Below, piece by piece: positions 4,396 to 32,000 of a DNA stretch of 32,000 nucleotides. Origin of the DNA: Methanothermobacter marburgensis str. Marburg. GTDB taxonomy: Archaea; Methanobacteriota; Methanobacteria; Methanobacteriales; Methanothermobacteraceae. The translations under genes and the position numbers were made by a program. Every line of letters begins with the position of its first letter. Position 1 is the first letter of the stretch. Location of the stretch: positions 1,602,696-1,634,695 of the forward strand of contig NC_014408.1 in assembly GCF_000145295.1 (NCBI RefSeq). Direction: 5' to 3'. The notes under the pieces are model-generated. The model saw only the letters and a program-made list of their open reading frames with translations. It had not been told where the DNA came from and ran no database searches.

Positions 4396-5331
4396 TTAAT
4401 CAACAATACCTGCTTCTGTTATCTTGAAGACACACTCACCCTCTGGGAGGTGGGGGCTGTCAACAAGTCTCGCTATCCTCTTACCTGCAAGTCCCTTCTT
4501 GAGCCACAGGCGGTAGGTCGCTGCATGGCCCAGGACGTGTCCGCCTATAGCCTTTGTGGGGCTTCCAAAGAAGGCGTCGGGTCTTGCCTGAACCTGGTTT
4601 GTTACGAAGACAGCTGCATTGTAGGTGTTTGCTATGTTCTGGAGGGTGTGGAGGTGCTGGTTGAGCTTCTGCTGCCTTGTTGCCAGGGCCTCCCTCCCAA
4701 CATACTCCGCCCTGAAGTGGGCTGTGAGGGAGTCCACAATTACAAGGCGTATGTTCTTGCCCTCCTGTATGAGCTCATTCACCTTCTCTGCCATGAGTAT
4801 CTGGTGACTTGAGTTGAATGCCCTTGCAATATGTATCTTATTGAGAACCTCCTCAAGGTCCAGTTCAAAGGCGTTGGCTATCTGCTCTATCCTTTCAGGA
4901 CGGAATGTGTTCTCTGTATCTATGAATACAGCCTCAGCATCCAGGCCACCCCTTTCCTCTGGTAGCTGCACAGTCACTGCTAGTTCATGGGATAGCTGGC
5001 TCTTACCTGATCCAAACTCTCCGAAAACCTCAGTTATTGCCTGTGTTTCAATCCCGCCGCCTATGAGTTCATCCAAGGCCTTGCTCCCTGTTGTTATTCG
5101 GCCCACGTCCTTTCGACGTTCCATCACATCAAAGGCTGTTTCAAAGTCTATCTTCTCAGCCCTTCTGGCGGCCTCTATCACCTTTTCAGCCACGCCCTCA
5201 CCAATTTCAGCCTTCACAGAGAGTTCCTTGGCGGTGGCTGTGGCAAGACGCATCATGTCCCCGAATCCTGCGTCCCTTAATTTCTGTGCCGTTTTGGCCC
5301 CTACATTTGGTAGATCTTCCAGTTCAACCAT
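4396..5331 (-). CDS. radA: DNA repair and recombination protein RadA
   Basis: N-terminal HhH region ([20 protein letters not shown]), Walker [10 protein letters not shown] and Walker B LVIVDS. Length 311 aa, typical of archaeal RadA. Confidence 0.97.
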
Positions 5332-5352: not shown

Positions 5353-7731
5353 TTAAAGTTCAATATTCACAACTTTTCTGGGTATAAACCTCGGTTCCTC
5401 ATTGTATTCATCAAAATCCGCGTTTCCGATAACCTCCACAGTGACGCCATTAAGGTCCTCAACCCTCTCCTCAAGTGCTGATTCATCTGCAGACTGGTTT
5501 ATGATATCAACAACCTCCCTCGTGGACATCCCCAGGAGTTTCTCGGCCTCCCTTCCAAAGAAGGTTATGAGGACCTCGCCGGTATCATCCATGATCCTTC
5601 CAGGGATCATGAGGAGGTATCGTGGCTCATCCACAAGGGCGCCGCAGAAGTTACAGATGTTCTCGTCAGAGAGTTCAAGCCTCTCATTGCATGATGGGCA
5701 CTTTATGGATAGAATTCTCCTGCCTGACATTTCTGTAAGTTCACCCTTTATCATGACATTTCTTGAATCCTCCTGAAGGTCCTCAATGTTTACAAGAGGA
5801 TATAAGATCTCCTGGAGCTCCTCAAATGAGGGTAACCCGCTGATATCCCTTTCAGTTGCCGGTTCAATCCTTGAATTTCTCCCTATGCTGAGTTCAAGTC
5901 TCTCTCCACCCATATCATCCCTGTAGATTACGCGGGGGTTTTCTATTCTCACCGCATCTCCAATGCTCAGTGGTCTCTCAGCAGCATCATCCCAGAGGCT
6001 TGCCCTTATGGATCCTGTGTCATCAGCAAATTCAACGGTTCTCACAAGGCCGGGTGTCCCGTCACCCCTCTGGAACTCCCTGGGATCAAAGAGATCAACC
6101 ACCCTCGCAATTATCCTTATGTTCCTGTCGTCCTCCTCAAGTTCATCGATCTTCTTTGTGGTGTAGAGCATCTCCTCAAGCTCCTCAAAGGAGGGCAGGT
6201 TCTCAATATCCTCTGGGAGGGGCTCCACTATTCTGGTTGTTCTTCCTGTGTTGAGTTCCACGCTGTAAAGCCCTAGTCTTATTCGGGCATTCTCTATTCT
6301 CACCGCATCCCCCACATTCAGGGGTTTTTCTGCTTTCTCGTCCCAGAGACTGACCCTTATCCTGCCTGTCTCATCTGCAAGTTCCATTGACCTCACGATA
6401 CCGGTCCCATCCTGCCTCTCAAATTCCCTCGGGTCGCTGAGGCTGAATATCCTGCCTGCAACATCCACCTCCTCACCCTCATCCTCCATTTCAAGTATCT
6501 CGGCTATCTTGAGGGGCCTCAGATGTTCCCTGTACTCCTCAAGGACCTTAAGGAGCGAACCATCAGACTCGGGGTTGACGGTGATGCGGGTGTTGAAGTT
6601 AGTATTTATGCGGTATGACTGGTTGAACTCATCAAATTCAACCCTTGCACCGGATATCCTTACAATGTCCCCCTTGTTGATCTTTATGCGGGTGTCATCA
6701 TCCCAGAGTGTTACCCTTGCAGAGCCTGTATCATCTGTAATCTCAATGGATCTTACAGAGCCCGTTGTTCCATCGTTTCTTTCAAATTCCACAGGGTCAT
6801 GAACCCTTGTTACAAGGCCCATCACAGTTGCACTCTCCATCTCATGGAGGTCCCCTATCTTAACCACCTTCTCACTGTAATCGGGAACATCATATTCCCC
6901 TGGCACAATCCTTGTGAGGCTGGTGTGTGTGAGTGTTACACTATCATCCCTTCTCCTTGTCTGGGCCCCCAGTATTTTAACCGCATCTCCCTCCTTAAGA
7001 CCAAGCTCCTCCACAAGGCCTACGTCGTTGTTCCAGATGGTGTATGTGGTTGAACCTGTTTCATCCATTATGTCAAGGGAAATGAACCTTCCCTCACGGC
7101 CATCCCTCTCAAAGGTCCTCACTCGGGATATGCCTGTTATTCTTGCAATGACGTTGACCTCCTGGTCCTCGGCAAGGTCAGCGATGGGTGTTATATCCTC
7201 CCTGTATTCTGGAAAGTCCGGAAAATCAGCGGGGTCAAGGACCTCAACCCTTGACCTTGGCATGAGATGTGCCTCCTTTCTGCCCCCGAATCCACCCCTT
7301 ATTCTAACATCCCTTATCCTGATCACATCGCCCTCATTGAATTTCTTGAGGAGCTTCATGTTCTCTGTCCAGAAAACCGTTCGAAGTTCACCTGTATTAT
7401 CTGCGATGATAACATTGGCGAGTTTTCCCTCTCTCCCCTTCCTTGTTGTGAAGGTCCTGGGACTTGATATTTTCATGACCCTGCCTGTCACCGGTGCCTC
7501 TGCACCCTCCTCAAGTTTGGATATGGTGTCCATCCTGTGCTCTTCCTTCTCTGACAGCATCGTATTTTCATTTTCAAGGATCTCATCAACCACCGTAGTT
7601 GCAATTGCAAGGTCATCCAGAAATCCAACGTCCCCATATTCCTCTTTCCTTTTCTCTATTAGCTCCTGAAATTCCTCAAGGGACATTCTGTCCTTAATCC
7701 TTTCATATTCCCTCTTAAGTTCTTCCTTCAT
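5353..7731 (-). CDS. rpa: Replication protein A (single-stranded DNA-binding protein) with five tandem OB folds plus a zinc-ribbon OB fold
   Basis: Five repeats of the pattern xxPRxFxRxDGxxGxxxxxxxxDxTGxxRxxxW...GDxxRI. C-terminal zinc motif CPSCNERLELSDENICNFCG. Lies 21 nt upstream of radA on the same strand. Confidence 0.9.
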   Translation of the reverse strand: MKEELKREYERIKDRMSLEEFQELIEKRKEEYGDVGFLDDLAIATTVVDEILENENTMLSEKEEHRMDTISKLEEGAEAPVTGRVMKISSPRTFTTRKGREGKLANVIIADNTGELRTVFWTENMKLLKKFNEGDVIRIRDVRIRGGFGGRKEAHLMPRSRVEVLDPADFPDFPEYREDITPIADLAEDQEVNVIARITGISRVRTFERDGREGRFISLDIMDETGSTTYTIWNNDVGLVEELGLKEGDAVKILGAQTRRRDDSVTLTHTSLTRIVPGEYDVPDYSEKVVKIGDLHEMESATVMGLVTRVHDPVEFERNDGTTGSVRSIEITDDTGSARVTLWDDDTRIKINKGDIVRISGARVEFDEFNQSYRINTNFNTRITVNPESDGSLLKVLEEYREHLRPLKIAEILEMEDEGEEVDVAGRIFSLSDPREFERQDGTGIVRSMELADETGRIRVSLWDEKAEKPLNVGDAVRIENARIRLGLYSVELNTGRTTRIVEPLPEDIENLPSFEELEEMLYTTKKIDELEEDDRNIRIIARVVDLFDPREFQRGDGTPGLVRTVEFADDTGSIRASLWDDAAERPLSIGDAVRIENPRVIYRDDMGGERLELSIGRNSRIEPATERDISGLPSFEELQEILYPLVNIEDLQEDSRNVMIKGELTEMSGRRILSIKCPSCNERLELSDENICNFCGALVDEPRYLLMIPGRIMDDTGEVLITFFGREAEKLLGMSTREVVDIINQSADESALEERVEDLNGVTVEVIGNADFDEYNEEPRFIPRKVVNIEL

Positions 7732-10807: not shown

Positions 10808-12001
10808 GTGCGTACAGAGGACGTGAGGGCCGACATACCACTCCTCAGGGAGAATGTGTACCTTGATGCCGCGAGCACAACCCCAACCCCCCTCCCCATT
10901 GTGAGGGCAATGACAGAGTACTTTGAAGGATACAACGCCAATACAGGACGAGGGGCGTATTCACTTGCAGTTGAAGCAACCATGAAACTTCAGGAAGCCC
11001 GGAGAAAGGTTGCAGGATTCATAAATGCCTCTGAGGACGAAATAGTATTCACAAAGAACACCTCCGAGGCCATAAACATTGTGGCGAGTGGCCTCAAATT
11101 CAGGAAGGGGGACTCGGTGGTTGTACCCAACATCGAGCACCACTCCAACTTCCTGCCCTGGCTCAGGCTCCGTGAAAGGGGTGTTGATGTAAGGATAGTG
11201 ATGGCAGATGAAAATGGCGTTGTGGGCCCTGCAATGGTTGAAGAGGCGGTCGATGAGACCACACGGCTTGTAACCATAACCCACATCTCCAATGCCCTTG
11301 GTACGGTGCAGGATGTGAAGGAGATTGAAAGGATCGCCCATGAAAACGGTGCCCTCTACATGATTGACGGGGCCCAGTCCATTGGACATATGAAGGTCGA
11401 TGTTAGGGAGCTGGGGGCAGATTTTGCAGCCTTCCCTGGCCACAAGGGGACCCTGGGTCCTGTGGGGACGGGTTTCCTCTACTGCAGGAGTGAGTGCCAG
11501 GATGAACTTGAACCATTCATGCTGGGTGGGGGTACCGTCATTGATGTCTCAGAGGATGACTACGTCCTGGAAGAGTTTCCCTCAAGGTTCGAGGCAGGGA
11601 CCCTCAACATAGCAGGCTTCATAGGTCTGGGGGCATCCATAGATTACATCAACAGGATAGGAATCCATAAAATCAGAAAGCATGGCCTGAAAATGACAGA
11701 AAAACTCTGCAGTGAGGTTTCATCCATTGACAAAATCCAGTGCTATGGTGACCCCCAAAATATTTATGGTATTCTTTCCTTCAACATAGATAATATGGAC
11801 CCCCATGACGTTGCAAAGCTGCTGGATGAAACCGCCGGTGTGTGTGTTAGAAGCGGCCACCACTGCGCGATACCAGCCATGAGGCACCTTGGAGTTCATG
11901 AATCCGGTGGCACCGTGAGGGCATCCATACACTACTACAATACAGATGAGGACATTGAGGTCCTTGCAGAAACCCTGAGGGAAATAGCAATGATGGGGTG
12001 A
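10808..12001 (+). CDS. Class V aminotransferase, cysteine desulfurase-like (SufS/Csd/NifS family)
   Basis: PLP-lysine region FPGHKGTLGPVGTGFLY, HHSNFLPW, and the active-site cysteine loop RSGHHCAIP. GTG at 10808 preferred (GAGGGGTGA upstream); the ORF-track TTG at 10793 overlaps leuB. Confidence 0.8.
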   Translation: MRTEDVRADIPLLRENVYLDAASTTPTPLPIVRAMTEYFEGYNANTGRGAYSLAVEATMKLQEARRKVAGFINASEDEIVFTKNTSEAINIVASGLKFRKGDSVVVPNIEHHSNFLPWLRLRERGVDVRIVMADENGVVGPAMVEEAVDETTRLVTITHISNALGTVQDVKEIERIAHENGALYMIDGAQSIGHMKVDVRELGADFAAFPGHKGTLGPVGTGFLYCRSECQDELEPFMLGGGTVIDVSEDDYVLEEFPSRFEAGTLNIAGFIGLGASIDYINRIGIHKIRKHGLKMTEKLCSEVSSIDKIQCYGDPQNIYGILSFNIDNMDPHDVAKLLDETAGVCVRSGHHCAIPAMRHLGVHESGGTVRASIHYYNTDEDIEVLAETLREIAMMG

Positions 12002-12005
12002 TGGG

Positions 12006-12086
12006 ATGAATAAGGCACAGATAATAGCACTGCTCATAGTAATCATAATGGTCTTAAGTACCATTGCAGGCGCACTTGTACTCTAA
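12006..12086 (+). CDS. Candidate 26-aa hydrophobic micro-protein (MNKAQIIALLIVIIMVLSTIAGALVL)
   Basis: Below the ORF-track size cutoff; found by reading the 97-nt gap. GGGGTGAT SD lies 3 nt before the ATG, the same spacing as neighbouring genes. Its stop TAA overlaps the ribH SD (TAAAGGAGG). Predicted single transmembrane helix. Confidence 0.35.
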   Translation: MNKAQIIALLIVIIMVLSTIAGALVL

Positions 12087-12098
12087 AGGAGGTATTAA

Positions 12099-12515
12099 AT
12101 GGCAGATGTCAGAATAGGGGCTGTGGTAGCCGAATTCAACTATGACATAACACATATGATGCTTGAACTTGCAAAAGAACATGCCAAATTTCTTGAATCC
12201 GAAATAACAAGGGTTATAGCTGTTCCAGGGGTATTCGATATGCCGCTCGCGGTTAAGAAGCTTCTCCTGGATGATGAAATCGACGCTGTTATCACACTGG
12301 GGGCTGTTATTGAGGGGGCAACGGACCATGACCAGATAGTGGTCCAGCACGCTTCACGTAAGATAGCGGACCTTTCACTTGAATACGATAAGCCCGTGGC
12401 CCTTGGAATATCCGGCCCCGGTATGACAAGGTTGGAAGCCCACCAGCGTGTTGACTATGCAAAGAGGGCCGTTGAGGCAGCCGTTAAAATGTACAGAAGA
12501 CTCAACGAAATTTGA
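12099..12515 (+). CDS. ribH: 6,7-dimethyl-8-ribityllumazine synthase (archaeal type)
   Basis: 138 aa. Contains [28 protein letters not shown] and [27 protein letters not shown], which closely resemble the archaeal lumazine synthase as I recall it. Strong AAGGAGGT SD. Confidence 0.88.
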
Positions 12516-20820: not shown

Positions 20821-21723
20821 ATGGATGATGGAGGCTATGTGATGGCAGGTTTCAGTCTTCTTCTCATGGTGCCGGCCATGATACTCGCCCTGATGATACT
20901 CAGCATCGATGATTCATCAGTGGAAAGAAGTGCTGATAGGTCCCTATCTGAGAGTATGACAGGGGCCCTGTGGGATATCAGGGACAGCATCCCGGTGATA
21001 ACAAGGGAAGTACTAAATGGAACTGCACAGGAGGCCATAAACGGTACACTTCCTCCAGACCTGGATGCCAGGGCCCGTGTAAGAGCAGGGGTACAGGGGC
21101 GTATTGACAGGTTATGCGCTGTCCACAGAAACATGAATCTAAGCTGCAGGGTGAATTCAGTTGAGGGGGCAACCGACGACCCCTTCTGTATTGAGGTTAA
21201 CTCCACTGTTGATATTAGGGCAGGAAAAATCCACCACACTGAGAACATTTCGGTAAGGGTACCTGTTGAGGATCTGCCTGATCCCCTGCCCTTCAGGGTT
21301 CTGGGAAGGTTGCAGCACAATGAAACGTCAATAGAGTATGGCAGGAGCCTCATGGACCACCTTTCTTCAGGGAACAGGGAAGCCTATGATGGGGCTTCCG
21401 GTCCTTTCCTGATAAGAAGGTGTCCCTATGAACCCTACACCATCCATGGATCCAGCGGAGTCCTCTACACCTGCCTCCTAAATGGATACTACCATGAGAG
21501 TCACGATGGGTCCTGCTACCTCTGTAGACTGGAGGGAAAAACCTCCTGTCCGCACCTGGGTCTTGAAACCTTCATAATACCCTCAGGAAATTTTGAGGAG
21601 GCCCCGGTATCTGTTGACCATGTTCTATTCACGACAGCGTACGCCGGGGAGCTCCACAACGTATCAGGATTCATCATATACCTTGACGGGGCCCACAGAA
21701 AAAAGTACGGTGTTATACAGTGA
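20821..21723 (+). CDS. Hypothetical membrane-anchored, probably extracellular Cys/His-rich protein
   Basis: GGTGAT SD 3 nt upstream. N-terminal hydrophobic helix GFSLLLMVPAMILALMIL. Seven N-x-S/T sequons. Cys/His cluster CPYEP...C...HESHDGSCYLCRLEGKTSCPH. I recognise no family. Confidence 0.6.
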   Translation: MDDGGYVMAGFSLLLMVPAMILALMILSIDDSSVERSADRSLSESMTGALWDIRDSIPVITREVLNGTAQEAINGTLPPDLDARARVRAGVQGRIDRLCAVHRNMNLSCRVNSVEGATDDPFCIEVNSTVDIRAGKIHHTENISVRVPVEDLPDPLPFRVLGRLQHNETSIEYGRSLMDHLSSGNREAYDGASGPFLIRRCPYEPYTIHGSSGVLYTCLLNGYYHESHDGSCYLCRLEGKTSCPHLGLETFIIPSGNFEEAPVSVDHVLFTTAYAGELHNVSGFIIYLDGAHRKKYGVIQ

Positions 21724-21956
21724 TATTCTCAACAGATTTTCTGCTCTCCCTCATAATCGTGGCCATTATCGTGGGCATATCTGCAGAACTGATGGAAATA
21801 CAGGAGACCCGAATGAATGAAAGATTCAGAGAAACATACACAAGGGCTAAAGGTGCCACAGCAACGGATGTTCTCATAAATACACCTGGAGATCCTGTTA
21901 ACTGGGAAAAGCTTCCTGTAGGCACCTGCAGGTATCCTGGACTTGCCGTCCCATGA
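21720..21956 (+). CDS. Hypothetical pilin-like N-terminal fragment / small membrane protein
   Basis: GTG start overlaps the upstream stop (GTGA). N-terminus MIFSTDFLLSLIIVAIIVGI. Ends at a TGA that is in frame with the next ORF. Confidence 0.45.
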   Translation: MIFSTDFLLSLIIVAIIVGISAELMEIQETRMNERFRETYTRAKGATATDVLINTPGDPVNWEKLPVGTCRYPGLAVP

Positions 21957-21986
21957 AAAAGAGGGGTCATATCCTATGAAAAAATC

Positions 21987-22511
21987 ATGAAAATTCGCTC
22001 AAGACCAGAATTACTTGAAAGGGCATTCCCGGGCATTCATGTGAGAATTGTGCTGAGTCCCCTCAACGACAGAATAAGCCCCATAATCATTGGCGGTGAA
22101 CTGAAGGGGAATGAAATACAGGTATTTAGAAAAACCGTCAACTGCAACTTCCTGTCTGATTATGTTATCAGGCGGGAGGAATGCCTGTGTCCCTCCGGTC
22201 ATGGCGAAAACTGGACCTGCATGAATTTTCGCGTTAATGACTCACTGGATTACTACCTCATATCAGATGGCTGCAGCGGATCATTCATCCTTGACACGGA
22301 CTGCAACAGAAGCCATGAAGAGATAAAAATCCGTTCAGGAAGTTTAAAACTGAATTTAACAGGGCAGGGCGTGGTATGGATCCATTTACATGGATGTGGA
22401 AGGGGGGTAATAATTGCCGGGCTTCCCCGCTCTGGAATGGATTGTCCGCTGAAACCTGATTACTTTGAGGTCCAGCCATGCTCCCTCCAGATCCTCATAT
22501 CCCCCTACTGA
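21987..22511 (+). CDS. Hypothetical Cys-rich protein, in frame with 21720-21956 (possibly its C-terminal part)
   Basis: 174 aa ORF in the same frame as the preceding ORF, with a single TGA between them. No convincing SD in front of its ATG. Eight Cys and three sequons. Confidence 0.4.
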   Translation: MKIRSRPELLERAFPGIHVRIVLSPLNDRISPIIIGGELKGNEIQVFRKTVNCNFLSDYVIRREECLCPSGHGENWTCMNFRVNDSLDYYLISDGCSGSFILDTDCNRSHEEIKIRSGSLKLNLTGQGVVWIHLHGCGRGVIIAGLPRSGMDCPLKPDYFEVQPCSLQILISPY

Positions 22512-22560
22512 CCCAGAGCCCCCCACCAGCATTACATGGTTCTGAGGTCTTAATGATGAT

Positions 22561-23892
22561 TCAGAGCCCTATAACTGCTATTATGGCTATTACAAGGCAC
22601 GTGTTTGCCACCGGGTCGGTCATGCTGGTCGACAGTGGGATAACTATGTTGTCAGGGTCCAGTTCAAGTCTGTAGGATGCTGAGCTCAGATAAAAGCCCA
22701 CCATAAGAAGGAATGGGGTCAGAAGGTACCCTGCAAGTGAACTTATAAGAACCATCCTCTCAAGTCCAAGGGACCCTATACCAAGGGAAACACTCACAAC
22801 ATGAGCCAGAAGCCCGATTGTTGGGTATATGATCAATGAAAGTACTGATATTATTCCAAAGTTTCTGAGGGCCTCTCCATGGGGTCTGAGGGTTGCAGGG
22901 ACTATACCAGAGTGGAGCCCAGAGGAAAGCCTTGCTCCGAGTATGCTCACAAGGTCTCCACTTTCACCTGAAAACAGCGGTACCAGTGCAAGGATTGCAG
23001 GGTTGTCAAGTATAAACGATAGTTTGCTGTTTAGGACCATACCCGCAGTGGTTCCCAGGGCTGAGCAGAGGAGAAGTACGGGCACGCTCTGTCTTATGAT
23101 CCTTCTAAGGTTATATCTGCCCTTAATTCCCATCGCAAGGCCCAGAACACCCATCAGAATAAACAGAAAAAAGAGCACCCATTCAAAAATGCCGTTCCTT
23201 ACAGCCTCAAGGATGGCCAGTGCCGCGAATATTGATGGGAGCGTGAAAAGGTCGCCTGAAGCTGCTATGAGGGGTGTTGTGACGTTATCAGGGTCCCAGC
23301 CATTCTCATAGCTCTTGAGGGATATGAGGACGGTTGCCGGGAGAAGGACGGCACCTGATATTATTCCGCCGGCCACAGAGATAACAATGAAATCCATTAT
23401 TCCCATGCTTCGAAATCCGAAGATATGGCAGAATATCCAGGCCATGAATCCAAGGAAAATTGACATAACCACGGTCAGTATTATGGTCGCCTCAATGTTC
23501 TCTGTAAGGACATCTGATTTTCGAAGTTCCGGTGAAAGGGTACCTATATGCAGACCTGAACCGAGGCGTGAACCCAGGGCCCCGAAGATATTACCCCTCA
23601 TCCCTATGGCACCGGGTATCAGTACAAGTAGGCCTGGATATGACTCAAGGAGGGGAGACATCTTACCCAGAAATATACCTGCCACAAGGTCCCCCAGGGC
23701 ACATATGAAGAGTGCGACGAAGCTTTCCCCTATAACCCTTTTAGAACCCCTGAAAAAGCTTCCAAAACTCTTGAATAGGTTAAAAGCCCTGACCCATCCC
23801 CTTGAGGCCGTTATGGATAAATTCACGGTAAATGTTAGCAGGGACTGTAGTATGAGCCGAGTCGTCCTCAGTAATCTTCCTGTTATCCTCAT
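22561..23892 (-). CDS. MgtE-like (SLC41-type) divalent cation transporter, internally duplicated membrane domain
   Basis: Two repeats of the MgtE membrane-domain signature: [25 protein letters not shown] and [25 protein letters not shown] at 23892 preferred (AGGTGAGG upstream) over the GTG at 23901. Confidence 0.7.
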
Positions 23893-23928
23893 TGACCTCA
23901 CCTGCTAACATTTACATCATCTCTGGGA

Positions 23929-24525
23929 CTATTCTATGCTGCACCCTATATCCTCAAGGGTCATCTCACCCTTTGCAAGTGCAAATAAGAGTTCTGAACC
24001 TGCTTCGTTTCCCTTGGCGATAAGAGTATCGTTCTCTGCAAGTACCGTGTTTCTATCGGGTCCGTAAATCCAGGATTCTCCTCTTCTGATGGCTATGATC
24101 CTCATACCTGTTCTGGTTGCAAGTAAAAGGTCTCCCAGTGATTTCCCTGCCAGCTCTGATCCCTCATCAATTGTCACCCTGACTATTATCTCATCGGACT
24201 CCTCCATGACCATCTTGAAGACAGGGTGGGGTTTGATGCCCTTCAGCACCAGGTCAGCGATATCCTTGGCAGAGTTTGCTATGCTTTCAGCTGCCTCACC
24301 CACCTCTAGGAGGGCTGTCAGTTTTTCGGCGTCCTCAACAGATCTTGCAGCAAGAAGTGACTCCTTTTTTATCTCATAGTTAAGCCTGTTGACCTTGTTT
24401 TCAAGTTTTATGACTTCCTCTGCCGCGTCCCTGCTGTTAAACAGGAGGGCAGAGTATGCAAGATCCACCATCAACTCCGAGAGGTTCTTCATTTCGATGA
24501 GAATATCCTTAACACTTTTGGACAA
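23929..24525 (-). CDS. PhoU-like plus TrkA-C (RCK_C) domain regulatory protein
   Basis: N-terminal helical PhoU-like repeat ([21 protein letters not shown]...). C-terminal TrkA-C pattern ([20 protein letters not shown]...[10 protein letters not shown]...DTLIAKG). TTG start with GGAGGA 6 nt upstream. Lies directly upstream of the transporter. Confidence 0.7.
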
Positions 24526-24596
24526 CTTTCATCCTCCTAGGCTGCTGAAATGATATTGGGTGATTTAAAATAAATATCTTGCTGCGGTGAAATCAG

Positions 24597-25670
24597 TTAT
24601 TTACTGGAGTTTCCTCCTGAAGCCATGAGGCACTCCCTTCGAAGCTTGAGAAGTTCCTTCTTCCTCTCGGTTAAATCATCCGGTTCTGAAATCAGCCGCT
24701 TAAGACCCCTCCTGACGCACTCAACAGCCTCATCGGTGTGTATCCATCTGCAGTCCTGGCAGCTCCATACGCCCTTATCCCGTATCCAGTAGCCCCCTGT
24801 GGACCCTTCACCGCATGGATAGAATGGGCAGTAACAGAATGCGCAGTTCTGACCCTCAAAGTGGCAGGGGTAGAATTCACACTTCTCATCAGGGCCTGAA
24901 TCTTTGCCGTAAGGATTCTCCTCATAGAACTTCCTTGCAAGTTCATGGAGTGGGGCCTCAACCGCGTATCCGCGGGGTGTGATCATGTATCCATCCCTTG
25001 TGTAGGTTGTAACGTTGCCGACTATGATGGTGGTGGACATGTCCACAAGGGATTCATTTAGGTCTCCAAGAGCCACAATACTCACCTGTGGACTTCCATT
25101 TTCGGTCCTCACCACACCCACGGGAGTTTCCGGTTCAAGTTCAGATCTTAGTATTTCAAGTGCCTCCCTGAAGGGTTTCTTCCTCCTCTTTCCCAGAGGG
25201 TTATAAAGGGCTATTACAAGTCCCGTCCCTGCAGCTGCCCTGATCTTTCTTCTTATCTCTGATAGGGGAGTGAGGATGTCGCTTAGACTTATAACCGCAA
25301 AGTCATGGAGAGGTGCCCCCAGGTGGGATGCTGCATAGTTGACCGCGGTCACGCCGGGTATAACCTCAAATTCAACCCCAGAATACTTATCAAATATCTG
25401 AAAGAATACATTGGCCATCCCATAGACACCCGGGTCTCCTGAACTAACCAGTGCGACGTTGAGACCTTCAAGGTGTTTCTCGATGGCCTTTTCCACTCTC
25501 TCAAGTTCAGACCCCATTCCGCTTTTTATTATCTCCTTGCCCTCCAGGAGGTCCTCTATCTGTTTTATGTACCTAACATATCCTATGACAACATCGGATT
25601 CTTCAAGAGCCCGGAGGGCCCTCACTGTTATATCATCCCTTGTGGGTCCAAGTCCTATTATCCTTATCAT
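24597..25670 (-). CDS. cbiH: Tetrapyrrole methylase, CbiH-like (cobalt-factor III / precorrin-3B C17-methyltransferase) fused to a Cys-rich small domain
   Basis: [32 protein letters not shown] and [11 protein letters not shown] (TP_methylase family, CbiH-like N-terminus). C-terminal 10-Cys domain [26 protein letters not shown]...CQDCRW...ECV. Confidence 0.65.
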
Positions 25671-25757
25671 GAGAACACCTTCAGGTGAATCAGGAGCTTA
25701 GTGATGTGAAGCCACTGCAGCGGATTTCCATGTATGAATTTACCTCCCAATTGATGC

Positions 25758-26255
25758 TCAGTAAATCCTGGTTACTGAAATGATTCTAAGGGTCCTGACA
25801 TCGACCCATACCCCTGATGACCTAGTTTCAGCCCTTGCAGCTGCAGTTACAGTGAACTGCTCGGTTGGCCTTATGACTATCTGACCGCTTCCTGTCTGGT
25901 TTTCACGGTACCCGGTCGCTGTTATGTTGATATTGATGTTCTCAAGTGATGTGTCCTCTGTTGTTGTCGCATTGAGGGAGCGGATGTTTATTCCATCAAG
26001 GCCAGTACGGGCTTTAAGGGCATCTGCAACATCTGCATTGTTTATTATCCGGATCTCCTCAGGCCCTCCAGTGATTGTGGAGGTTATATTCTTACCTGAA
26101 TCCAGAAATGAAGATACGGTGTCTATCTGCATTTCAATAAGTTTTTCCACATCCGGTGGTTTTGACGTTACAAGTGTGTATGAACTTATGAGCCCGGCCT
26201 CAAAGAAGGCCAGGAATATTATGAGGAACAGGAATAATTTAATGATCCTTGGCAA
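25758..26255 (-). CDS. Hypothetical N-terminally anchored, probably extracellular protein
   Basis: TTG start with GGTGAT 3 nt upstream. Hydrophobic N-terminus IIKLFLFLIIFLAFF. Several sequons (NITS, NATT, NINIT, NQT). No recognised family. Confidence 0.5.
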   Translation of the reverse strand: MPRIIKLFLFLIIFLAFFEAGLISSYTLVTSKPPDVEKLIEMQIDTVSSFLDSGKNITSTITGGPEEIRIINNADVADALKARTGLDGINIRSLNATTTEDTSLENININITATGYRENQTGSGQIVIRPTEQFTVTAAARAETRSSGVWVDVRTLRIISVTRIY

Positions 26256-26388
26256 TGCATCACCTTTTTTCTGTGAATGGACCCAAAGGGTAAACTACTA
26301 TTTCGATAAGAATATATGAACTCAATGAAATATTTAACCGTGAACCCATTTTAAAGATTTCTGAATTCCCCTAACCAGTTCATGCAGT

Positions 26389-27861
26389 ATGATTGAAATG
26401 AATGAAATAATAGGAAAATTTGCAAGGGAAGGAATTTTAATAGAGGATAACGCATATTTCAGGCTGAAAGAAATGGATGATCCTGCAACAGCCTCCTCGG
26501 AGATTATAGTTAAGATAAAAAAGAATGGTGGGGGTAAATTCACTCTTCTGACCTCGGAGATGCTTGATGACCTCTTTGAGTTGACTGAGGAAATAGATAA
26601 CCCCGCGGAAATAAAGGCGAGGGGTCCAATCAATGTTCCAAGGGAGAGGGAATTCGACTTCAGGGTCATCACAGATACCAGTAAGAGATCATACACCAGT
26701 GGGGAGATAGGTGACATGATCTCCTACTTCAACAGCAGATTCAGCTGCCTCAGGGATCTCCTCAAAAGACGCCCTGAACTTAAGAGCCATGTGCCCATTG
26801 CGGATCTTCGCGGCGGGGACGACGCTGTGAGCATCATAGGGATCATCAATGAGATACGAACCACCAAGAACAACCACAGAATGCTTGAACTGGAGGATGA
26901 TACAGGGGAAATAACAGTGGTGGTTCACAATGAAAACCATAAACTGTTTGAAAAGTCCGAGAAGCTTGTTAGGGATGAGGTCATAGGTGTTCAGGGTGCG
27001 AAAAAGGGGAGGTTTGTGGTGGCCTCCGAGATCTTCCATCCTGGTGTACCACGAATACAGGAGAAGGAAATGGACTTTTCAGTTGCCTTCATATCTGATG
27101 TCCACATAGGAAGCCAGACCTTCCTTGAAGATGCATTCACCAAGTTCGTTAAATGGATAAACGGGGACTTTGGGACGGAGGACCAGATGAATATCGCGGC
27201 TGACATTAAGTACTTGGTGGTTGCAGGTGACATCGTTGATGGTATCGGGATATACCCTGGACAGGAAAAGGAACTCATCATAAGGGATATCAATGAGCAG
27301 TATGAGGAGGCTGCAAGGCTTTTTGGAGAGATAAGGGATGACATAAAGATTGTGATGATCCCTGGAAACCACGATGCATCGAGGATCGCTGAGCCCCAGC
27401 CCGCAATACCCGAGGAATATGCGAAGCCGCTTTACAGCCTAAAAAATGTTGAATTTTTGAGTAACCCGTCCATGGTGAGTCTTGACGGTATAAAAACCCT
27501 CATATATCATGGCAGAAGTTTTGACGATATGGCCATGAGCGTGAACGGGCTTTCCCATGAAAGGTCCGATCTCATAATGGAGGAACTCCTTGAGAAGAGA
27601 CACCTTGCACCTATATACGGTGAAAGGACCCCCCTTGCATCTGAAATAGAGGACCACCTTGTGATTGATGATGTCCCCCATATCCTTCATACGGGACATG
27701 TCCATATAAACGCATACAAAAAATACAAGGGTATTCACCTTATAAATTCAGGTACATTCCAGTCGCAGACGGAGTTTCAGAAGATATACAACATTGTCCC
27801 AACATGTGGCCAGGTCCCGGTGCTCAACAGAGGGGTAATGAAGCTTCTGGAGTTCAATTAG
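26389..27861 (+). CDS. DNA polymerase II (PolD) small subunit DP1, 3'-5' exonuclease
   Basis: OB region followed by calcineurin-like phosphoesterase motifs [26 protein letters not shown] and HTGHVH. 490 aa. Confidence 0.92.
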
Positions 27862-27878
27862 TCCAGGCAGGTGATTAC

Positions 27879-28442
27879 TTGAATCCATTGAGGGATGTTG
27901 TTGATGTTTCGGTCCACCTCTACAGGAGGGGTCTTGTATCTGGCATTGGAGGAAACGTGAGTGCAAGGGTGGATGATAGGGTTTTCATAACACCCACAAT
28001 GGTCCCCCTTGACCAGGTGACACTTAAGAATGTTGCAATGGTTGACCTTGAAGGGAATATCCTCAGGGGCGGAAGACCATCCTCGGAACTGGAACTCCAT
28101 CTTGAGGTCTACAGGAGGAGGCCTGATGTCAATGGTGTGGTGCACACCCACTCACCATATGCCAGGGCATTTTTAGTTGCCGGGATTGAGATTGAGAAAA
28201 TGGAGGGCTTCAGGGGACTCGGACAGGGAAATCTTCCTGTAGTATCATATTATCCCCCTGGAAGCAGGGACCTTGCATCAGCCTGTGCAGAGACGATGGT
28301 GAATGAAAATGCGGCTGTCCTTGAAAACCACGGTGTGGTATGTGCAGGTGAAACTGTTAAGGAAGCCCTCCTGCTTGCAGAGTTCATTGAGGAGCTGGCA
28401 AAAACCCGGTTCATTGCTGAGGTCCTGAAATTCATGAAATAG
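27879..28442 (+). CDS. Class II aldolase/adducin family protein (L-fuculose-1-phosphate aldolase-like)
   Basis: GNVSARV and HTHSPYA (zinc-His) motifs. TTG at 27879 preferred (AGGTGA 6 nt upstream). The ORF-track start at 27804 would overlap PolD DP1 by 58 nt. Confidence 0.78.
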   Translation: MNPLRDVVDVSVHLYRRGLVSGIGGNVSARVDDRVFITPTMVPLDQVTLKNVAMVDLEGNILRGGRPSSELELHLEVYRRRPDVNGVVHTHSPYARAFLVAGIEIEKMEGFRGLGQGNLPVVSYYPPGSRDLASACAETMVNENAAVLENHGVVCAGETVKEALLLAEFIEELAKTRFIAEVLKFMK

Positions 28443-28530
28443 TTAAATTAATTGTTTAAATAGTTATGGAAGAGATTTATTCCCTAGGAACCGTTTAAAC
28501 CAGACAAAATAGGATATAAAAAACAGAGAT

Positions 28531-28785
28531 TTATTCCCTTATGGATTCAAGTTCACTGAGTATTTCCCATACCAGTGTCCTTGCATGTATCGGGATGTTG
28601 GGGTCGTTGCTTATCTCATCCAGAATTGATATGACCGTGCTCGCCCTCACTGTGCTGTCCTCATCAGGGTTGTTGAGGATCTCCTTTGATTCCTCGGCAG
28701 CCCTTCTGATGTTCCTTGGGACACTATTATCTTCCATAATATGCTTTAAAATTTCAGAAACGCGATCAAATGTTTCGTTACTCAT
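28531..28785 (-). CDS. UPF0147 family small helical protein
   Basis: [32 protein letters not shown]...[17 protein letters not shown] matches my memory of the archaeal UPF0147 family. GGAGGA SD precedes the ATG at 28785; the upstream extension to 28839 is unsupported. Confidence 0.75.
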
Positions 28786-28859
28786 GTTGGGTCCTCCCTG
28801 CTGAATTCCTGAAGAATGCAGAATAATGTTTATATTCAATTTGGTTTATATCATTTGGG

Positions 28860-29849
28860 TTAAAAAGTTTTTGGTGTCCCTGAAACCGCCACTGCAACCG
28901 CAACTCCTGATGACGTTGTTTTTCTTATAACAAGTCTTGATCCGGTTCCTGCACTTTTAAGAGCCGCGGCTTCGCATACACTTCCAACACCAAATTTTTC
29001 GTTGACAAAATCTGAAAATGAGTGTGTATCCTGTGCTTTGAGCTCCTGCAGAGGTATGATTTCCAGGGGGACCCCCAGATCCTCTGCTGCATCAATTATT
29101 CCCCTTTCATTTTTCTTCATGTAACCTGTTGCCAGTGCATCGATCCTCTCGGGGGGTAGCTTCAAGAGTCCAAGTGCTTCCACAATTGCACCGGTTACCC
29201 GGCTGGACTCAACTCCCCTCCTTGTCCCTATACCCACTGAAACCTTGAGGGGAGCCAGTCTCATGACCTCAGAGTTACACTGGGCCCTTACAATCTCATC
29301 TCCATCCATCATGTACCTGTAGGTTCTGGACAGTTCACCATCAATGAGGGGCCCCAGGTTCCTTGATGAGTGCAGTTCCACAGTGTGCCCCTCCACAATT
29401 GAGGAATTGAAGTGCTTCACGAGGTGCCTGTCAAGTATCACGTAGAAGTATCTTGCTGCAAAGCTGTCAATTCCCACAAGACCATTAACATCAGTTGCTG
29501 TTGTTATAACGGGGTTTGCGTTGAGTATGTCTGCAATTTTGACTGCAAAATCGTTTGCACCTCCTGCATGTCCCGAAAGGAGACTTATGACATTCCTTCC
29601 CATTTCGTCGATGACAATAACTCCTGGATCAGAGAATTTGTTTTCAAGAAGCGGGGCGATCTTTCTCACCATTATACCTGCTGCCATTATACCAATTATC
29701 ATGTCGCTTCTGGAAAACACCTCCCTGAAATCTATATCCCTGTGCAGGGTTTCAACTGAGAGAATGGTGGGATCGTCCTTAAGACCTGTCTTCAGGCTCT
29801 CACCAAGTTTCCTGCCATTTTCTGTGAGTGTCAGTATACTCACTCTCAT
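28860..29849 (-). CDS. cbiG: Cobalamin biosynthesis protein CbiG (cobalt-precorrin-5A hydrolase)
   Basis: 329 aa. C-terminal CbiG block VGIGTRRGVESSRVTGAIVEALGLL...IDALATGYMKKNERGIIDAAEDLGVPLEIIPLQEL. ATGA start/stop overlap with cbiB. Confidence 0.82.
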   Translation of the reverse strand: MRVSILTLTENGRKLGESLKTGLKDDPTILSVETLHRDIDFREVFSRSDMIIGIMAAGIMVRKIAPLLENKFSDPGVIVIDEMGRNVISLLSGHAGGANDFAVKIADILNANPVITTATDVNGLVGIDSFAARYFYVILDRHLVKHFNSSIVEGHTVELHSSRNLGPLIDGELSRTYRYMMDGDEIVRAQCNSEVMRLAPLKVSVGIGTRRGVESSRVTGAIVEALGLLKLPPERIDALATGYMKKNERGIIDAAEDLGVPLEIIPLQELKAQDTHSFSDFVNEKFGVGSVCEAAALKSAGTGSRLVIRKTTSSGVAVAVAVSGTPKTF

Positions 29850-30739
29850 GGTATCACCAGCATTATTCCTGTTGCAGACACGATGAACAGGACAAGAGAT
29901 ATTGAACTCAGTTTCAGTGCATCTTTAAGCTTTTCAGTTGAAAGGAACTCTCTGGGATCCCCAAGAACATATACTCCTGGTTTTTCCAGCTGAACGGATA
30001 GTGCTCCAGCCGCTGCAGCCATTGTGAATCCTGAGTTTGGACTGGGGGTGCGTCTGGCGTCCCTGAGGAGTACTCTCAGCGAATTTTTCCAGTTCATGGA
30101 CAGGAAAAACGCTGCAAGAACAATCATAAAACCTGTCACTCTGGATGGTATGTAGTTCAGTATGTCATCAAGTCTGGCAGGGAACCATCCCAGATCCCTG
30201 TTTTCGTCATCAAGGTATCCCACCATTGCATCAAGTGTATTAACGACCCTGTAAAGGAATGCTCCAGGAAGTCCAAGTAGGATGAAGTAAAAAAGAGGCG
30301 CTGTAACAGAGTCTGTAAGGTTTTCTGTGAGTGTTTCAATGGTTGCTGAGAGTATCTGCTCATCTGTGAGTGTGGTGGTATCTCTGCTTACAAGATAGGA
30401 AAGTTTCTCCCTTGCCTCATCAATGCTGTCATCCAGTGATCTTCCAACATCCAGGGCAGATGTAAAGAGCATCCTTATGGATATTACCGTTGACAGGAGC
30501 ACTGCAGCTATCAGAGTGTATAGGGGTTCATTCAAGTACCCTATGAGTAGGGTTGGTGCTGTGAATACCGAGACAACCACTAGAGTCATTATTATTCCTG
30601 ATAGACGCGTTTTACTGAGTATTCCTTTCATCCATGCAACGATTGACCCCATGTGTACAACAGGGTGAAGTATGGTTGGGGGTTCTCCGATTATAATATC
30701 AATTGAAACTGCAAGTAACAGGACAGGGATTTCATTCAT
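29846..30739 (-). CDS. cbiB: Adenosylcobinamide-phosphate synthase CbiB/CobD
   Basis: Polytopic membrane protein with IIGEPPTILHPVVHMGSIV, MVGY and PSPNSG..MAAAAGAL motifs typical of CbiB. Confidence 0.88.
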   Translation of the reverse strand: MNEIPVLLLAVSIDIIIGEPPTILHPVVHMGSIVAWMKGILSKTRLSGIIMTLVVVSVFTAPTLLIGYLNEPLYTLIAAVLLSTVISIRMLFTSALDVGRSLDDSIDEAREKLSYLVSRDTTTLTDEQILSATIETLTENLTDSVTAPLFYFILLGLPGAFLYRVVNTLDAMVGYLDDENRDLGWFPARLDDILNYIPSRVTGFMIVLAAFFLSMNWKNSLRVLLRDARRTPSPNSGFTMAAAAGALSVQLEKPGVYVLGDPREFLSTEKLKDALKLSSISLVLFIVSATGIMLVIP

Positions 30740-30837
30740 GTTTTCCCTTTTTGTTGCGATTCATTATATACCAGTGACATGTAATAATTTCACCATGTTA
30801 TATATTCATGGATGGATATAATTAGTTGTGTGATACC

Positions 30838-31305
30838 ATGCCAGAGAAGAAGATAAAAAAATGGCTTGAGGAGGAGGGTTTTCTGAGGATGGAGGTCCCT
30901 GACGAAAACGCCTTGTTCCATTATGTGATAAACTATCCAGAGGATCATGTCATTGATATCATTCAGCCCGCTGGAAAGAACGACATGATTCTTATAGCCT
31001 GTGCAACCAGTGTTAGTCCCGAGCACCAGTCAGGGATACGTGCGCTCAGCATGGAGAAAAGGACTGAATTCATATGGAAGGTTCGTTTTACCCTGAACAG
31101 TTTTGGAGTTGATTTCCAGCTCGATCATCCAGAGAACGTTCTGAACAGTTATCTTGTAACCTCTGAAATATTTTCCGATGGCCTCTCAAAGGACAGATTG
31201 ATTTCAAGTATAAAAAATGTTTTCAGGGCTAAACTTCATGTCATGTGGATGATACAGGAACGTTTCGGCGATGATAAACCTGAACACGACAGCATGTATG
31301 TGTGA
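30838..31305 (+). CDS. Conserved archaeal hypothetical protein (DUF2299-like by recollection)
   Basis: 155-159 aa soluble protein. ATG at 30838 or TTG at 30826; no clear SD. Family assignment is from memory only. Confidence 0.45.
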   Translation: MPEKKIKKWLEEEGFLRMEVPDENALFHYVINYPEDHVIDIIQPAGKNDMILIACATSVSPEHQSGIRALSMEKRTEFIWKVRFTLNSFGVDFQLDHPENVLNSYLVTSEIFSDGLSKDRLISSIKNVFRAKLHVMWMIQERFGDDKPEHDSMYV

Positions 31306-31325
31306 GGTTCATTTCCAGTGAAAAC
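31302..31325 (-). repeat. ORB-like repeat L0 (degenerate)
   Basis: gtgaggttcATTTCCAGTGAAAAC. The G-rich flank overlaps the stop codon of the upstream gene. Lies 51 bp before L1. Confidence 0.5.
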
Positions 31326-31350
31326 ATCTATGAAGTGCTTCTGAGCATCT

Positions 31351-31376
31351 GGGAGAGATGGATTTCAACTGTAAAT
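31351..31376 (-). repeat. ORB repeat L1
   Basis: gggagagatggATTTCAACTGTAAAT (G-string plus core). Confidence 0.8.
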
Positions 31377-31402
31377 TGTTTTTTGTGTCATGAATCTGGT
31401 TT

Positions 31403-31428
31403 GAGGGACGTCTATTTCAAGTGTAAAT
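31403..31428 (-). repeat. ORB repeat L2
   Basis: gagggacgtctATTTCAAGTGTAAAT; core starts 52 bp after L1. Confidence 0.8.
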
Positions 31429-31452
31429 CTGTTCCAGTACATTATGGGGCAT

Positions 31453-31480
31453 GGGTGAGAGGTGCATTTCAACTGTAATT
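31453..31480 (-). repeat. ORB repeat L3
   Basis: gggtgagaggtgcATTTCAACTGTAATT; core starts 52 bp after L2. Confidence 0.75.
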
Positions 31481-31504
31481 TGTGTACAATACTGAGGGAG
31501 AGGT

Positions 31505-31531
31505 GAGGGAGAGGTATATTTCAAGTGAAAT
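31505..31531 (-). repeat. ORB repeat L4
   Basis: gagggagaggtatATTTCAAGTGAAAT; core starts 52 bp after L3; one base shorter. Confidence 0.7.
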
Positions 31532-31562
31532 CTTTATTACAATATTAAACTTTGAAATTAAA

Positions 31563-31588
31563 ATGCGACATTGATTTCAACTGTAAAT
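31563..31588 (-). repeat. ORB repeat L5 (no G-string)
   Basis: atgcgacattgATTTCAACTGTAAAT; core starts 56 bp after L4. Confidence 0.75.
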
Positions 31589-31641
31589 GTATTAGATGTT
31601 TCCTGGTCAGATTCGCTTGGGAGATCCTATCTTCACATTTA

Positions 31642-31665
31642 ATTACATTCGAAATGCATGTCCCC
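31642..31665 (+). repeat. ORB repeat R1 (degenerate core)
   Basis: ATTACATTCGAAATgcatgtcccc. Confidence 0.65.
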
Positions 31666-31689
31666 AACATAACAGCAGCCAAATCCTGG

Positions 31690-31715
31690 ATTTACACTTG
31701 AAATGCATGTCTCCC
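31690..31715 (+). repeat. ORB repeat R2
   Basis: ATTTACACTTGAAATgcatgtctccc. Confidence 0.85.
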
Positions 31716-31741
31716 TTACAATATCCAACATTTCAGGAATC

Positions 31742-31766
31742 ATTACACTTGAAATGCATGTCTCCC
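31742..31766 (+). repeat. ORB repeat R3
   Basis: ATTACACTTGAAATgcatgtctccc; 51 bp after R2. Confidence 0.85.
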
Positions 31767-31792
31767 ATTCACGACTGAGTGGACAAATAAGT

Positions 31793-31818
31793 GTTACACT
31801 TGAAACGCATGTCCCTCC
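31793..31818 (+). repeat. ORB repeat R4
   Basis: GTTACACTTGAAACgcatgtccctcc; 51 bp after R3. Confidence 0.8.
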
Positions 31819-31845
31819 TTCACATCCAGCAGACTGCCGGGGAAA

Positions 31846-31871
31846 ATTTACACTTGAAATGCATGTCTCAC
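31846..31871 (+). repeat. ORB repeat R5
   Basis: ATTTACACTTGAAATgcatgtctcac; 54 bp after R4. Confidence 0.85.
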
Positions 31872-31934
31872 TGTCATTATTATGAAACGGATTGATATTA
31901 ATAAAAACTTTTATCTAAGAGTTAGAATAAGAAA

Positions 31935-31958
31935 ATTTACACTTGAAACTTATCACCC
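31935..31958 (+). repeat. ORB repeat R6
   Basis: ATTTACACTTGAAACttatcaccc; 89 bp after R5, across an AT-rich gap. Confidence 0.75.
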
Positions 31959-32000
31959 TGTTTATAGGGTGATCTAAAGGGGCACTGCCAGTATTAAAAG

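Follow-up and report, generated by a model that had tools for sequence, protein, structure and literature searches.

Twelve opposed origin recognition boxes upstream of cdc6-1 as the probable chromosomal replication origin of a Methanothermobacter strain

The right end of a 32,000-nt stretch of Methanothermobacter DNA (contig NC_014408.1; the whole stretch that was analysed is called the window hereafter) carries a dozen copies of a short element in an interval with no credible open reading frame (ORF), which raises the question of whether these repeats constitute a replication origin, a CRISPR array or another type of repeat-bearing region. An initial annotation, made from the sequence alone, had proposed a replication origin at 31302-32000 and had warned that repeat-finding programs could mistake it for a CRISPR array. 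From the sequence comparisons described here, the locus is very probably the chromosomal replication origin (oriC) of the strain, of the conserved oriC1 type that is found next to orc1/cdc6. Such an origin is already known in the genus, where that of M. thermautotrophicus has been characterised experimentally, and the motif of the family has been incorporated into origin-prediction tools.

The number of repeats given by the initial annotation is exact, as 31300-31960 holds 12 copies of the core TTACA(C/G)TTGAAAT. Read in their common orientation, the elements consist of the sequence (a/t)TTACA(C/G)TTGAAAT, around five variable nucleotides and a pyrimidine-rich run (GTCTCCC, CTCTCCC or GTCCCTC) that begins 5-6 nt past the core, as exemplified by GCATGTCTCCC. 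Each of these origin recognition boxes (ORBs) is thus a 13-bp dyad with a pyrimidine-rich 3' extension of ~11 nt, and the ORBs of this origin are TTACASTTGAAAT elements that represent putative targets of the initiator protein Cdc6-1. The C-rich run that had been described ~6 nt after the core is indeed found in 11 of the 12 copies, while the copy at 31575 is devoid of it. When up to two mismatches are allowed, the core TTACASTTGAAA finds 27 matches in the 32 kb of the window, compared with an expectation of 4.7 +/- 2.1, and none of 100 shuffled sequences reaches 27. The exact 12-mer core occurs nine times in the whole window, always within 31363-31948. A thirteenth site, with its core at 31202 on the minus strand and one mismatch, is located within the adjacent DUF2299 gene. 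A repeat finder resolves the region into two families of ~25-35-nt repeats, which are reverse complements of each other and occupy 31345-31591 and 31641-31959. Tandem Repeats Finder, when applied to the window, does not report the array, because its units are interspersed with unique sequence, and returns only a duplication of an 11-bp unit (GAGGGAGAGGT) at 31493-31515.

From the perspective of their arrangement, the copies form two opposed clusters, a feature that was missing from the initial description. Six minus-strand copies (31312-31575) are followed by six plus-strand copies (31643-31937), instead of a single one-way array, and the dyad ends of all of them point inward to the centre, with the extensions facing outward. 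The spacing from start to start within each arm is 49-56 bp, with the exceptions of an 89-bp step before the last copy and the 68-bp step across the polarity switch. Since a centre-to-centre distance of ~52 bp corresponds to approximately five helical turns, the sites of an arm lie on one face of the DNA. The coordinates of the individual elements, together with their conservation in a sister species, are collected in Table 1.

This two-arm arrangement bears directly on the possibility that the repeats form a short-spacer CRISPR array, in which ~24-bp direct repeats separated by ~27-bp spacers would be transcribed and processed into CRISPR RNAs. CRISPR arrays, too, are made of short repeats that alternate at regular intervals with unique stretches of about the same length, and the right arm, considered on its own, contains 4-5 copies of a 23-24-nt unit with 83-100% identity, located 49-54 bp apart (family D3). 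At this locus, however, half of the copies have the opposite orientation, the repeats are degenerate, with an identity over 35 nt of only 60-89%, and neither the CRISPR-DR families nor any other RNA family of Rfam matches the window at gathering thresholds. Of the genes encoded in the 10 kb to the left and the 9 kb to the right, none has a cas domain. The supposed spacers show no difference in three other contigs that span the region and retain 60% identity to the orthologous positions of another species, and the same 12-mer is found at a fixed position 5' of cdc6-1 throughout the family, where it equals the core of a published ORB motif. On the grounds of orientation, repeat degeneracy, spacer conservation, synteny and the missing cas genes and Rfam match, a CRISPR array was rejected, and its probability is considered negligible. 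A false call is nonetheless plausible from the repeat and spacer lengths alone, and the warning of the initial annotation was reasonable, because the right arm (a unit of ~24 nt, spacers of ~27-30 nt and 4-5 copies) could pass length filters on its own.

The interpretation as an origin led to the expectation of an orc1/cdc6 gene just past the right edge of the window, to be sought by rightward extension. This extension is provided by L001, a section (852,366-872,833, reversed) of the near-identical 1.74-Mb genome CP042937.1, in which the origin corresponds to ~862,000. The exact DUF2299 protein, which occurs in several Methanothermobacter assemblies, served to find L001, which shows two mismatches to positions 20838-32000 of the window and adds 9 kb beyond it. 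In L001, the predicted gene is present: cdc6-1 (11264-12412) starts 101 bp past the window edge and encodes a protein of 382 aa with AAA, Cdc6_lid and Cdc6_C winged-helix domains, in whose translation both Walker motifs, A (GKTGTGKT) and B (VVLDEID), are intact. Its name at NCBI is 'ORC1-type DNA replication protein Cdc6-1 [Methanothermobacter]' (WP_147671328.1), and the closest solved structures are those of the ORB-bound Orc1-1 from S. solfataricus (2qby_A, E 1e-78) and of ORC1 from A. pernix (2v1u_A). The core has 13 matches with at most one mismatch in L001, with 0.23 expected. In all five contigs with both genes, the 795 bp that separate the DUF2299 gene from cdc6-1 are free of called genes, which agrees with the earlier statement that the last ~700 bp of the window hold no credible ORF. 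Two 60-aa ORFs (31596-31778 and 31703-31885) overlap ORBs, remain uncalled in every covering contig and were discarded as spurious.

Phased repeats beside an initiator gene are also typical of captured archaeal extrachromosomal replicons, and the locus could accordingly be seen as an iteron-type origin or as the remnant of an integrated plasmid or virus. The genes around it speak for a chromosomal location instead, as the neighbours are core housekeeping genes (cobD/cbiG, the PolD small subunit, OTCase and a Hef-like helicase) and there is no integrase or viral gene among the flanking genes, nor is any att site seen around the locus. Moreover, the initiator belongs to the slow-evolving Orc1-1/Cdc6-1 type, and the locus is syntenic across the Methanobacteriaceae, with Cdc6-1 proteins that are 77-99% identical, all of which makes a captured replicon extremely improbable.

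Regarding the sequence of the elements, the 13-mer core found here equals the core of the ORB motif that DoriC / Ori-Finder 2 lists for the Methanobacteriaceae, TT[TA]CACTTGAAAT[GTA]T[CT][CG]TC (PMC4164010), which bears out the initial assignment of the repeats to the known Cdc6-1 binding type. The same work lists a 'common' archaeal ORB motif, TCCA[CG]T[TG]GAAA[TC][GA]AAGGGGT, and one for the Thermococcaceae, [TC]TCCAGTGGAAA[TC][GA]AA[AG]CTC (PMC4164010). A full-text search of the literature with the repeat sequence retrieved unrelated papers only. The elements had also been described as a core followed by a G-string, the layout of complete ORBs in other archaea, and this part does not stand. 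The G-string at the distal end of the ORBs is absent, and on the strand that carries GGGGT or G6 in other lineages, the extension is rich in pyrimidines (CTCTCC). Rather than with the G6 tract of Pyrococcus, the run aligns with the linker that precedes it: on the complementary strand, the ORB1 oligonucleotide from P. furiosus reads TTCCAGTGGAAAT-GAAACTCT-GGGGGG (PMC1904270), and the element TTACACTTGAAAT-GCATGTCT-CCC aligns with it in register through TCT, with C or A here in place of the terminal G6 tract. Likewise, the extension A.CTCT that is conserved in the family (consensus ...GAAATnnA(C/T)CTCTC) matches the 'A-CTCT' linker of the Thermococcales (...GAAAT-GAAACTCT-). The missing G-string does not decide whether a region belongs to the origins; this feature is not universal, and Ori-Finder 2 notes it for some lineages only (PMC4164010).

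The conservation of the locus was analysed at the level of the family and of closely related strains. A scan with the Cdc6-1 protein, restricted to one genome per species, yielded 80 loci (including those of Methanothermobacter, Methanobacterium, Methanobrevibacter and relatives), from which the identity range given above derives. Nearly all loci with enough upstream DNA present minus-strand cores in a distal cluster and plus-strand cores in a cluster proximal to cdc6, and the spacing of successive copies on the same strand peaks sharply at 52-53 bp. An extended consensus, TTTTACACTTGAAATnnA(C/T)CTCTC, was derived from the 543 upstream elements, 99% of which have the G of TTGAAA. Stable binding reportedly requires a conserved sequence 3' of the 13-mer together with an invariant guanine, which fits the extension and this nearly constant G. 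In Methanobacterium-like genomes, non-coding DNA of 250-850 bp with 84-98% A+T lies between the clusters, and this AT-rich tract between the clusters in related genera is the textbook arrangement in which a duplex-unwinding element (DUE) is enclosed by opposed boxes, that is, ORB(-)/DUE/ORB(+).

At closer range, the locus of a sister species whose Cdc6-1 is 99% identical (L007) served as the reference for footprinting. Identity to L007 reaches 92% in the ORB cores and 76% in the ORB extensions, compared with 60% in ordinary spacers. The copy at 31643 is not common to both species, because only eight of its 24 positions are identical. Among close relatives, the interval is identical or differs by one base in four other contigs. 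A metagenome contig from ENA (L006, 667-1410), whose DUF2299 protein is identical, is missing exactly one ORB and its spacer, a unit of 51 bp (window 31692-31742). Close strains thus differ in the number of their ORBs, and the loss of precisely one unit shows that this number changes by recombination between units.

Several features that characterise origins of the oriC1 type are found together at this locus. These include a non-coding region adjoining orc1/cdc6, multiple ORBs that match the consensus of the lineage, an opposite polarity of these ORBs with the dyad sides directed to the centre (a rule described in PMC6742236), and the conservation of this layout in relatives. The nearest characterised system is the oriC of M. 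thermautotrophicus, which shares with the present locus the genus, the position directly 5' of cdc6-1 and the presence of multiple 13-bp mini-ORBs; according to the summary in PMC1904270, Cdc6-1 binds these mini-ORBs specifically and cooperatively. The nearby replication genes match as well, with the PolD small subunit, RPA and RadA all encoded in the window. The strain is a different one, the Cdc6-1 found here being assigned to unclassified Methanothermobacter strains. A review attributes to M. thermautotrophicus a single functional origin, citing Capaldi and Berger 2004 as well as Majernik and Chong 2008, and reports its function in vivo (PMC4010727). The oriC1 origins of Sulfolobus (ORB3-DUE-ORB2, recognised by Orc1-1) and Aeropyrum pernix also adjoin a homologous initiator gene and contain ORBs of opposite polarity with their dyad sides to the centre, although they have 3-4 sites, versus the 12 phased sites described here, and differ in the dyad (TCCAGTGGAA instead of TTACACTTGAA) and in the presence of the GGGGT G-string. 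Finally, the oriC of Pyrococcus and other Thermococcales (ORB1/ORB2) resembles this locus in having many 13-bp mini-ORBs adjoining cdc6.

Binding of the initiator need not imply firing, and the cluster might instead act as an operator for the autoregulation of cdc6-1, or as an accessory or dormant cluster such as that in the dp1 gene of Pyrococcus. Clusters of ORBs that are bound by Cdc6 outside of the origin exist in Pyrococcus (PMC1904270), and dormant origins are known in haloarchaea. In addition, the last plus-strand ORB is located at a near-fixed distance of approximately -164 bp from the cdc6-1 ATG, where it represents the best-conserved block of the proximal 250 bp in 78 loci, and the sequence from this ORB to the ATG shows 91% conservation between species. 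The fixed distance and the conservation of the last ORB suggest a second role for it, for example in cdc6-1 autoregulation, but autoregulation and origin function are compatible. Two opposed clusters are the architecture of an origin, a long AT-rich tract separates them in sister genera, and the homologous cluster is the one reported to be the single functional origin of M. thermautotrophicus (PMC4010727). In view of this layout and of the in vivo results published for the sister strain, a non-firing cluster is considered quite unlikely. As for a cluster inside the PolD small-subunit gene, the situation described for Pyrococcus, no core match is found in 26389-27861 at up to two mismatches.

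The manner in which such an origin would work can be proposed from published studies on M. thermautotrophicus, Sulfolobus and Aeropyrum. Monomers of Cdc6-1 would bind each ORB directionally, with the winged helix on the dyad and the initiator-specific motif of the AAA+ domain on the extension, and this binding would be cooperative along each phased arm. The bound initiators would bend and underwind the DNA and, owing to the opposed polarity of the arms, would turn their winged-helix and lid sides to the centre. The MCM helicase would then be loaded between the arms, from where replication would proceed bidirectionally. These last steps correspond to the general model for archaeal origins, in which opposed ORBs turn the winged-helix and lid sides of the initiators to the DUE, with MCM loading taking place between these ORBs (PMC6742236, PMC12141716).

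The centre of the locus does not conform easily to this model. The last kb is the G+C minimum of the window (0.388). The central 56 bp (31587-31642) have 50-67% A+T over most of their length and an identity to L007 of 32%. Because this segment is not AT-rich and is the least conserved, the canonical position of the DUE is not obviously filled in Methanothermobacter, in contrast to Sulfolobus and Aeropyrum, where the DUE is located between the innermost opposed sites. Nothing observed here contradicts the identification of the locus as an origin. Within the window, local GC skew tracks the orientation of the genes without any interpretable inflection at the locus, and it is thus uninformative. 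The conserved AT-rich tracts (83-87% A+T) are found inside the arms, and since they lie between ORBs of the same polarity, only candidates can be named for the site where unwinding would start. AT-rich tract 1 (31531-31574) is the best of these, as it borders the polarity switch. Next in order comes AT-rich tract 2 (31872-31936), which may serve as an unwinding element or hold upstream promoter elements of cdc6-1.

A tentative and rather doubtful explanation is that the Methanothermobacter origin has been compacted, with the long AT-rich DUE of the sister genera shrunk to the fast-evolving 56 bp, and with unwinding and MCM loading displaced to an off-centre tract within an arm. If this were true, the geometry would differ from the ORB3-DUE-ORB2 arrangement of Sulfolobus, in which the helicase lies between opposed initiators, and the pyrimidine extension that replaces the G-string would mark a lineage-specific reading of the DNA by the AAA+ domain.

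For the genome itself, the chief value of these results is in annotation, as they fix the position of oriC and its boundary with cdc6-1 and flag a locus that length-based CRISPR callers could falsely report. They also make modest additions to a known system, namely an extended family-wide ORB consensus without G-string, a strict phasing of ~52 bp, the copy-number polymorphism of whole ORB units and the compact centre in a thermophilic genus, as opposed to Methanobacterium, whose DUEs measure several hundred bp. The accepted view of how archaeal origins are recognised is unchanged.

Table 1. Features of the origin region and of nearby replication genes, in window coordinates, with their conservation in the sister species (L007). 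The core start is the position reported by the core scan.
Feature	Position	Strand	Core start	Sequence or remarks	Conservation in L007
RadA	4396..5331	-		311 aa	
RPA	5353..7731	-		792 aa, multi-OB-fold	
PolD small subunit	26389..27861				
DUF2299 gene, left neighbour of the origin	30838..31305	+		Pfam PF10061, E 9e-47; called in six contigs	
Outlying ORB-like site	31190..31213	-	31202	core TTATACTTGAAA, 1 mismatch; in the 3' part of the DUF2299 coding sequence	same place
Degenerate ORB	31300..31323	-	31312	core TTTCACTGGAAA, 2 mismatches; extension overlaps the DUF2299 stop codon	16/18 aligned positions; L007 core nearer consensus
Left-arm ORB	31351..31374	-	31363	exact core TTACAGTTGAAAT + tccatCTCTCCC	21/24
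Left-arm ORB	31403..31426	-	31415	TTACACTTGAAAT + agacGTCCCTC	21/24
Left-arm ORB	31455..31478	-	31467	TTACAGTTGAAAT + gcacCTCTCAC	21/24
Left-arm ORB	31507..31530	-	31519	TTTCACTTGAAAT + atacCTCTCCC	21/24
AT-rich tract 1	31531..31574	.		up to 87% A+T in 30-bp windows; between the fourth and the innermost left-arm ORB	84% identity
Innermost left-arm ORB	31563..31586	-	31575	exact core TTACAGTTGAAAT, without C-rich extension	21/24
Polarity-switch region	31587..31642	.		ordinary composition, fast-evolving	32% identity, with indel
Degenerate lineage-specific ORB	31643..31666	+	31643	TTACATTCGAAAT + gcatGTCCCC; 2 mismatches	8/24
Right-arm ORB	31692..31715	+	31692	TTACACTTGAAATGCATGTCTCCC; unit + spacer (51 bp) missing in L006	22/24
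Right-arm ORB	31743..31766	+	31743	TTACACTTGAAATGCATGTCTCCC	22/24
Right-arm ORB	31794..31817	+	31794	TTACACTTGAAACGCATGTCCCTC	21/24
Right-arm ORB	31848..31871	+	31848	TTACACTTGAAATGCATGTCTCAC	22/24
AT-rich tract 2	31872..31936	.		83% A+T; between the fifth and the last right-arm ORB	85% identity; invariant run of ~60 bp
Last ORB	31937..31960	+	31937	TTACACTTGAAACTTATCACCCT, exact core; ~164 bp 5' of the cdc6-1 ATG	23/24
Palindrome	31952..31973	.		ATCACCCT-N6-AGGGTGAT; shares bases with the last ORB's extension; DNA-fold energy -7.2 kcal/mol (z -4.5)	one position different in both 8-bp arms
Beginning of the conserved region upstream of cdc6-1	31961..32000	+		extends for another 100 bp outside the window, up to the ATG (window-equivalent 32101)	91% identity over 31961-32100, the last 140 bp before the ATG

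With respect to the flanking genes, 62 related Methanobacteriaceae loci have at least 2.5 kb of upstream DNA, and 30 of them encode a homologue of DUF2299 (48-95% identity) 5' of cdc6-1, on the same strand. DUF2299 is a recurrent origin-flanking gene, located outside the origin proper. The distances that the initial annotation had given for the PolD small subunit (~3.5 kb) and for rpa-radA (~24-26 kb) are in accordance with the gene positions in Table 1, RadA and RPA being adjacent to each other, ~24-27 kb away from oriC. Genes of replication and repair thus form a loose group on one side of it.

The size of the origin region varies within the family. In three Methanobacterium spp. (L053, L066 and L069), 19-29 ORB cores extend over 2.5-4 kb 5' of cdc6-1, so that their origin regions are far larger than the ~800-bp one described here. 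On a smaller scale, the perfect tandem duplication at 31493-31515 (TGAGGGAGAGG x2.1) is situated within the extension of the ORB at 31519, and it looks like a local copying of this extension, which is G-rich, and C-rich on the strand of the element.

Apart from the palindrome that overlaps the extension of the last ORB, a second one is found 5-43 bp past the window edge (L001 11169-11207). It is a near-perfect palindrome of 39 bp, CCTCAAAAACCTGAAATGAT-T-ATCATTCCAGTTTTGAGG, with a z of -4.6. The palindromes between the last ORB and cdc6-1 show no conservation across the family and are specific to the genus, and they might represent the site of a regulator or a structure in the 5' untranslated region of cdc6-1. 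The 39-bp palindrome is invariant in L007.

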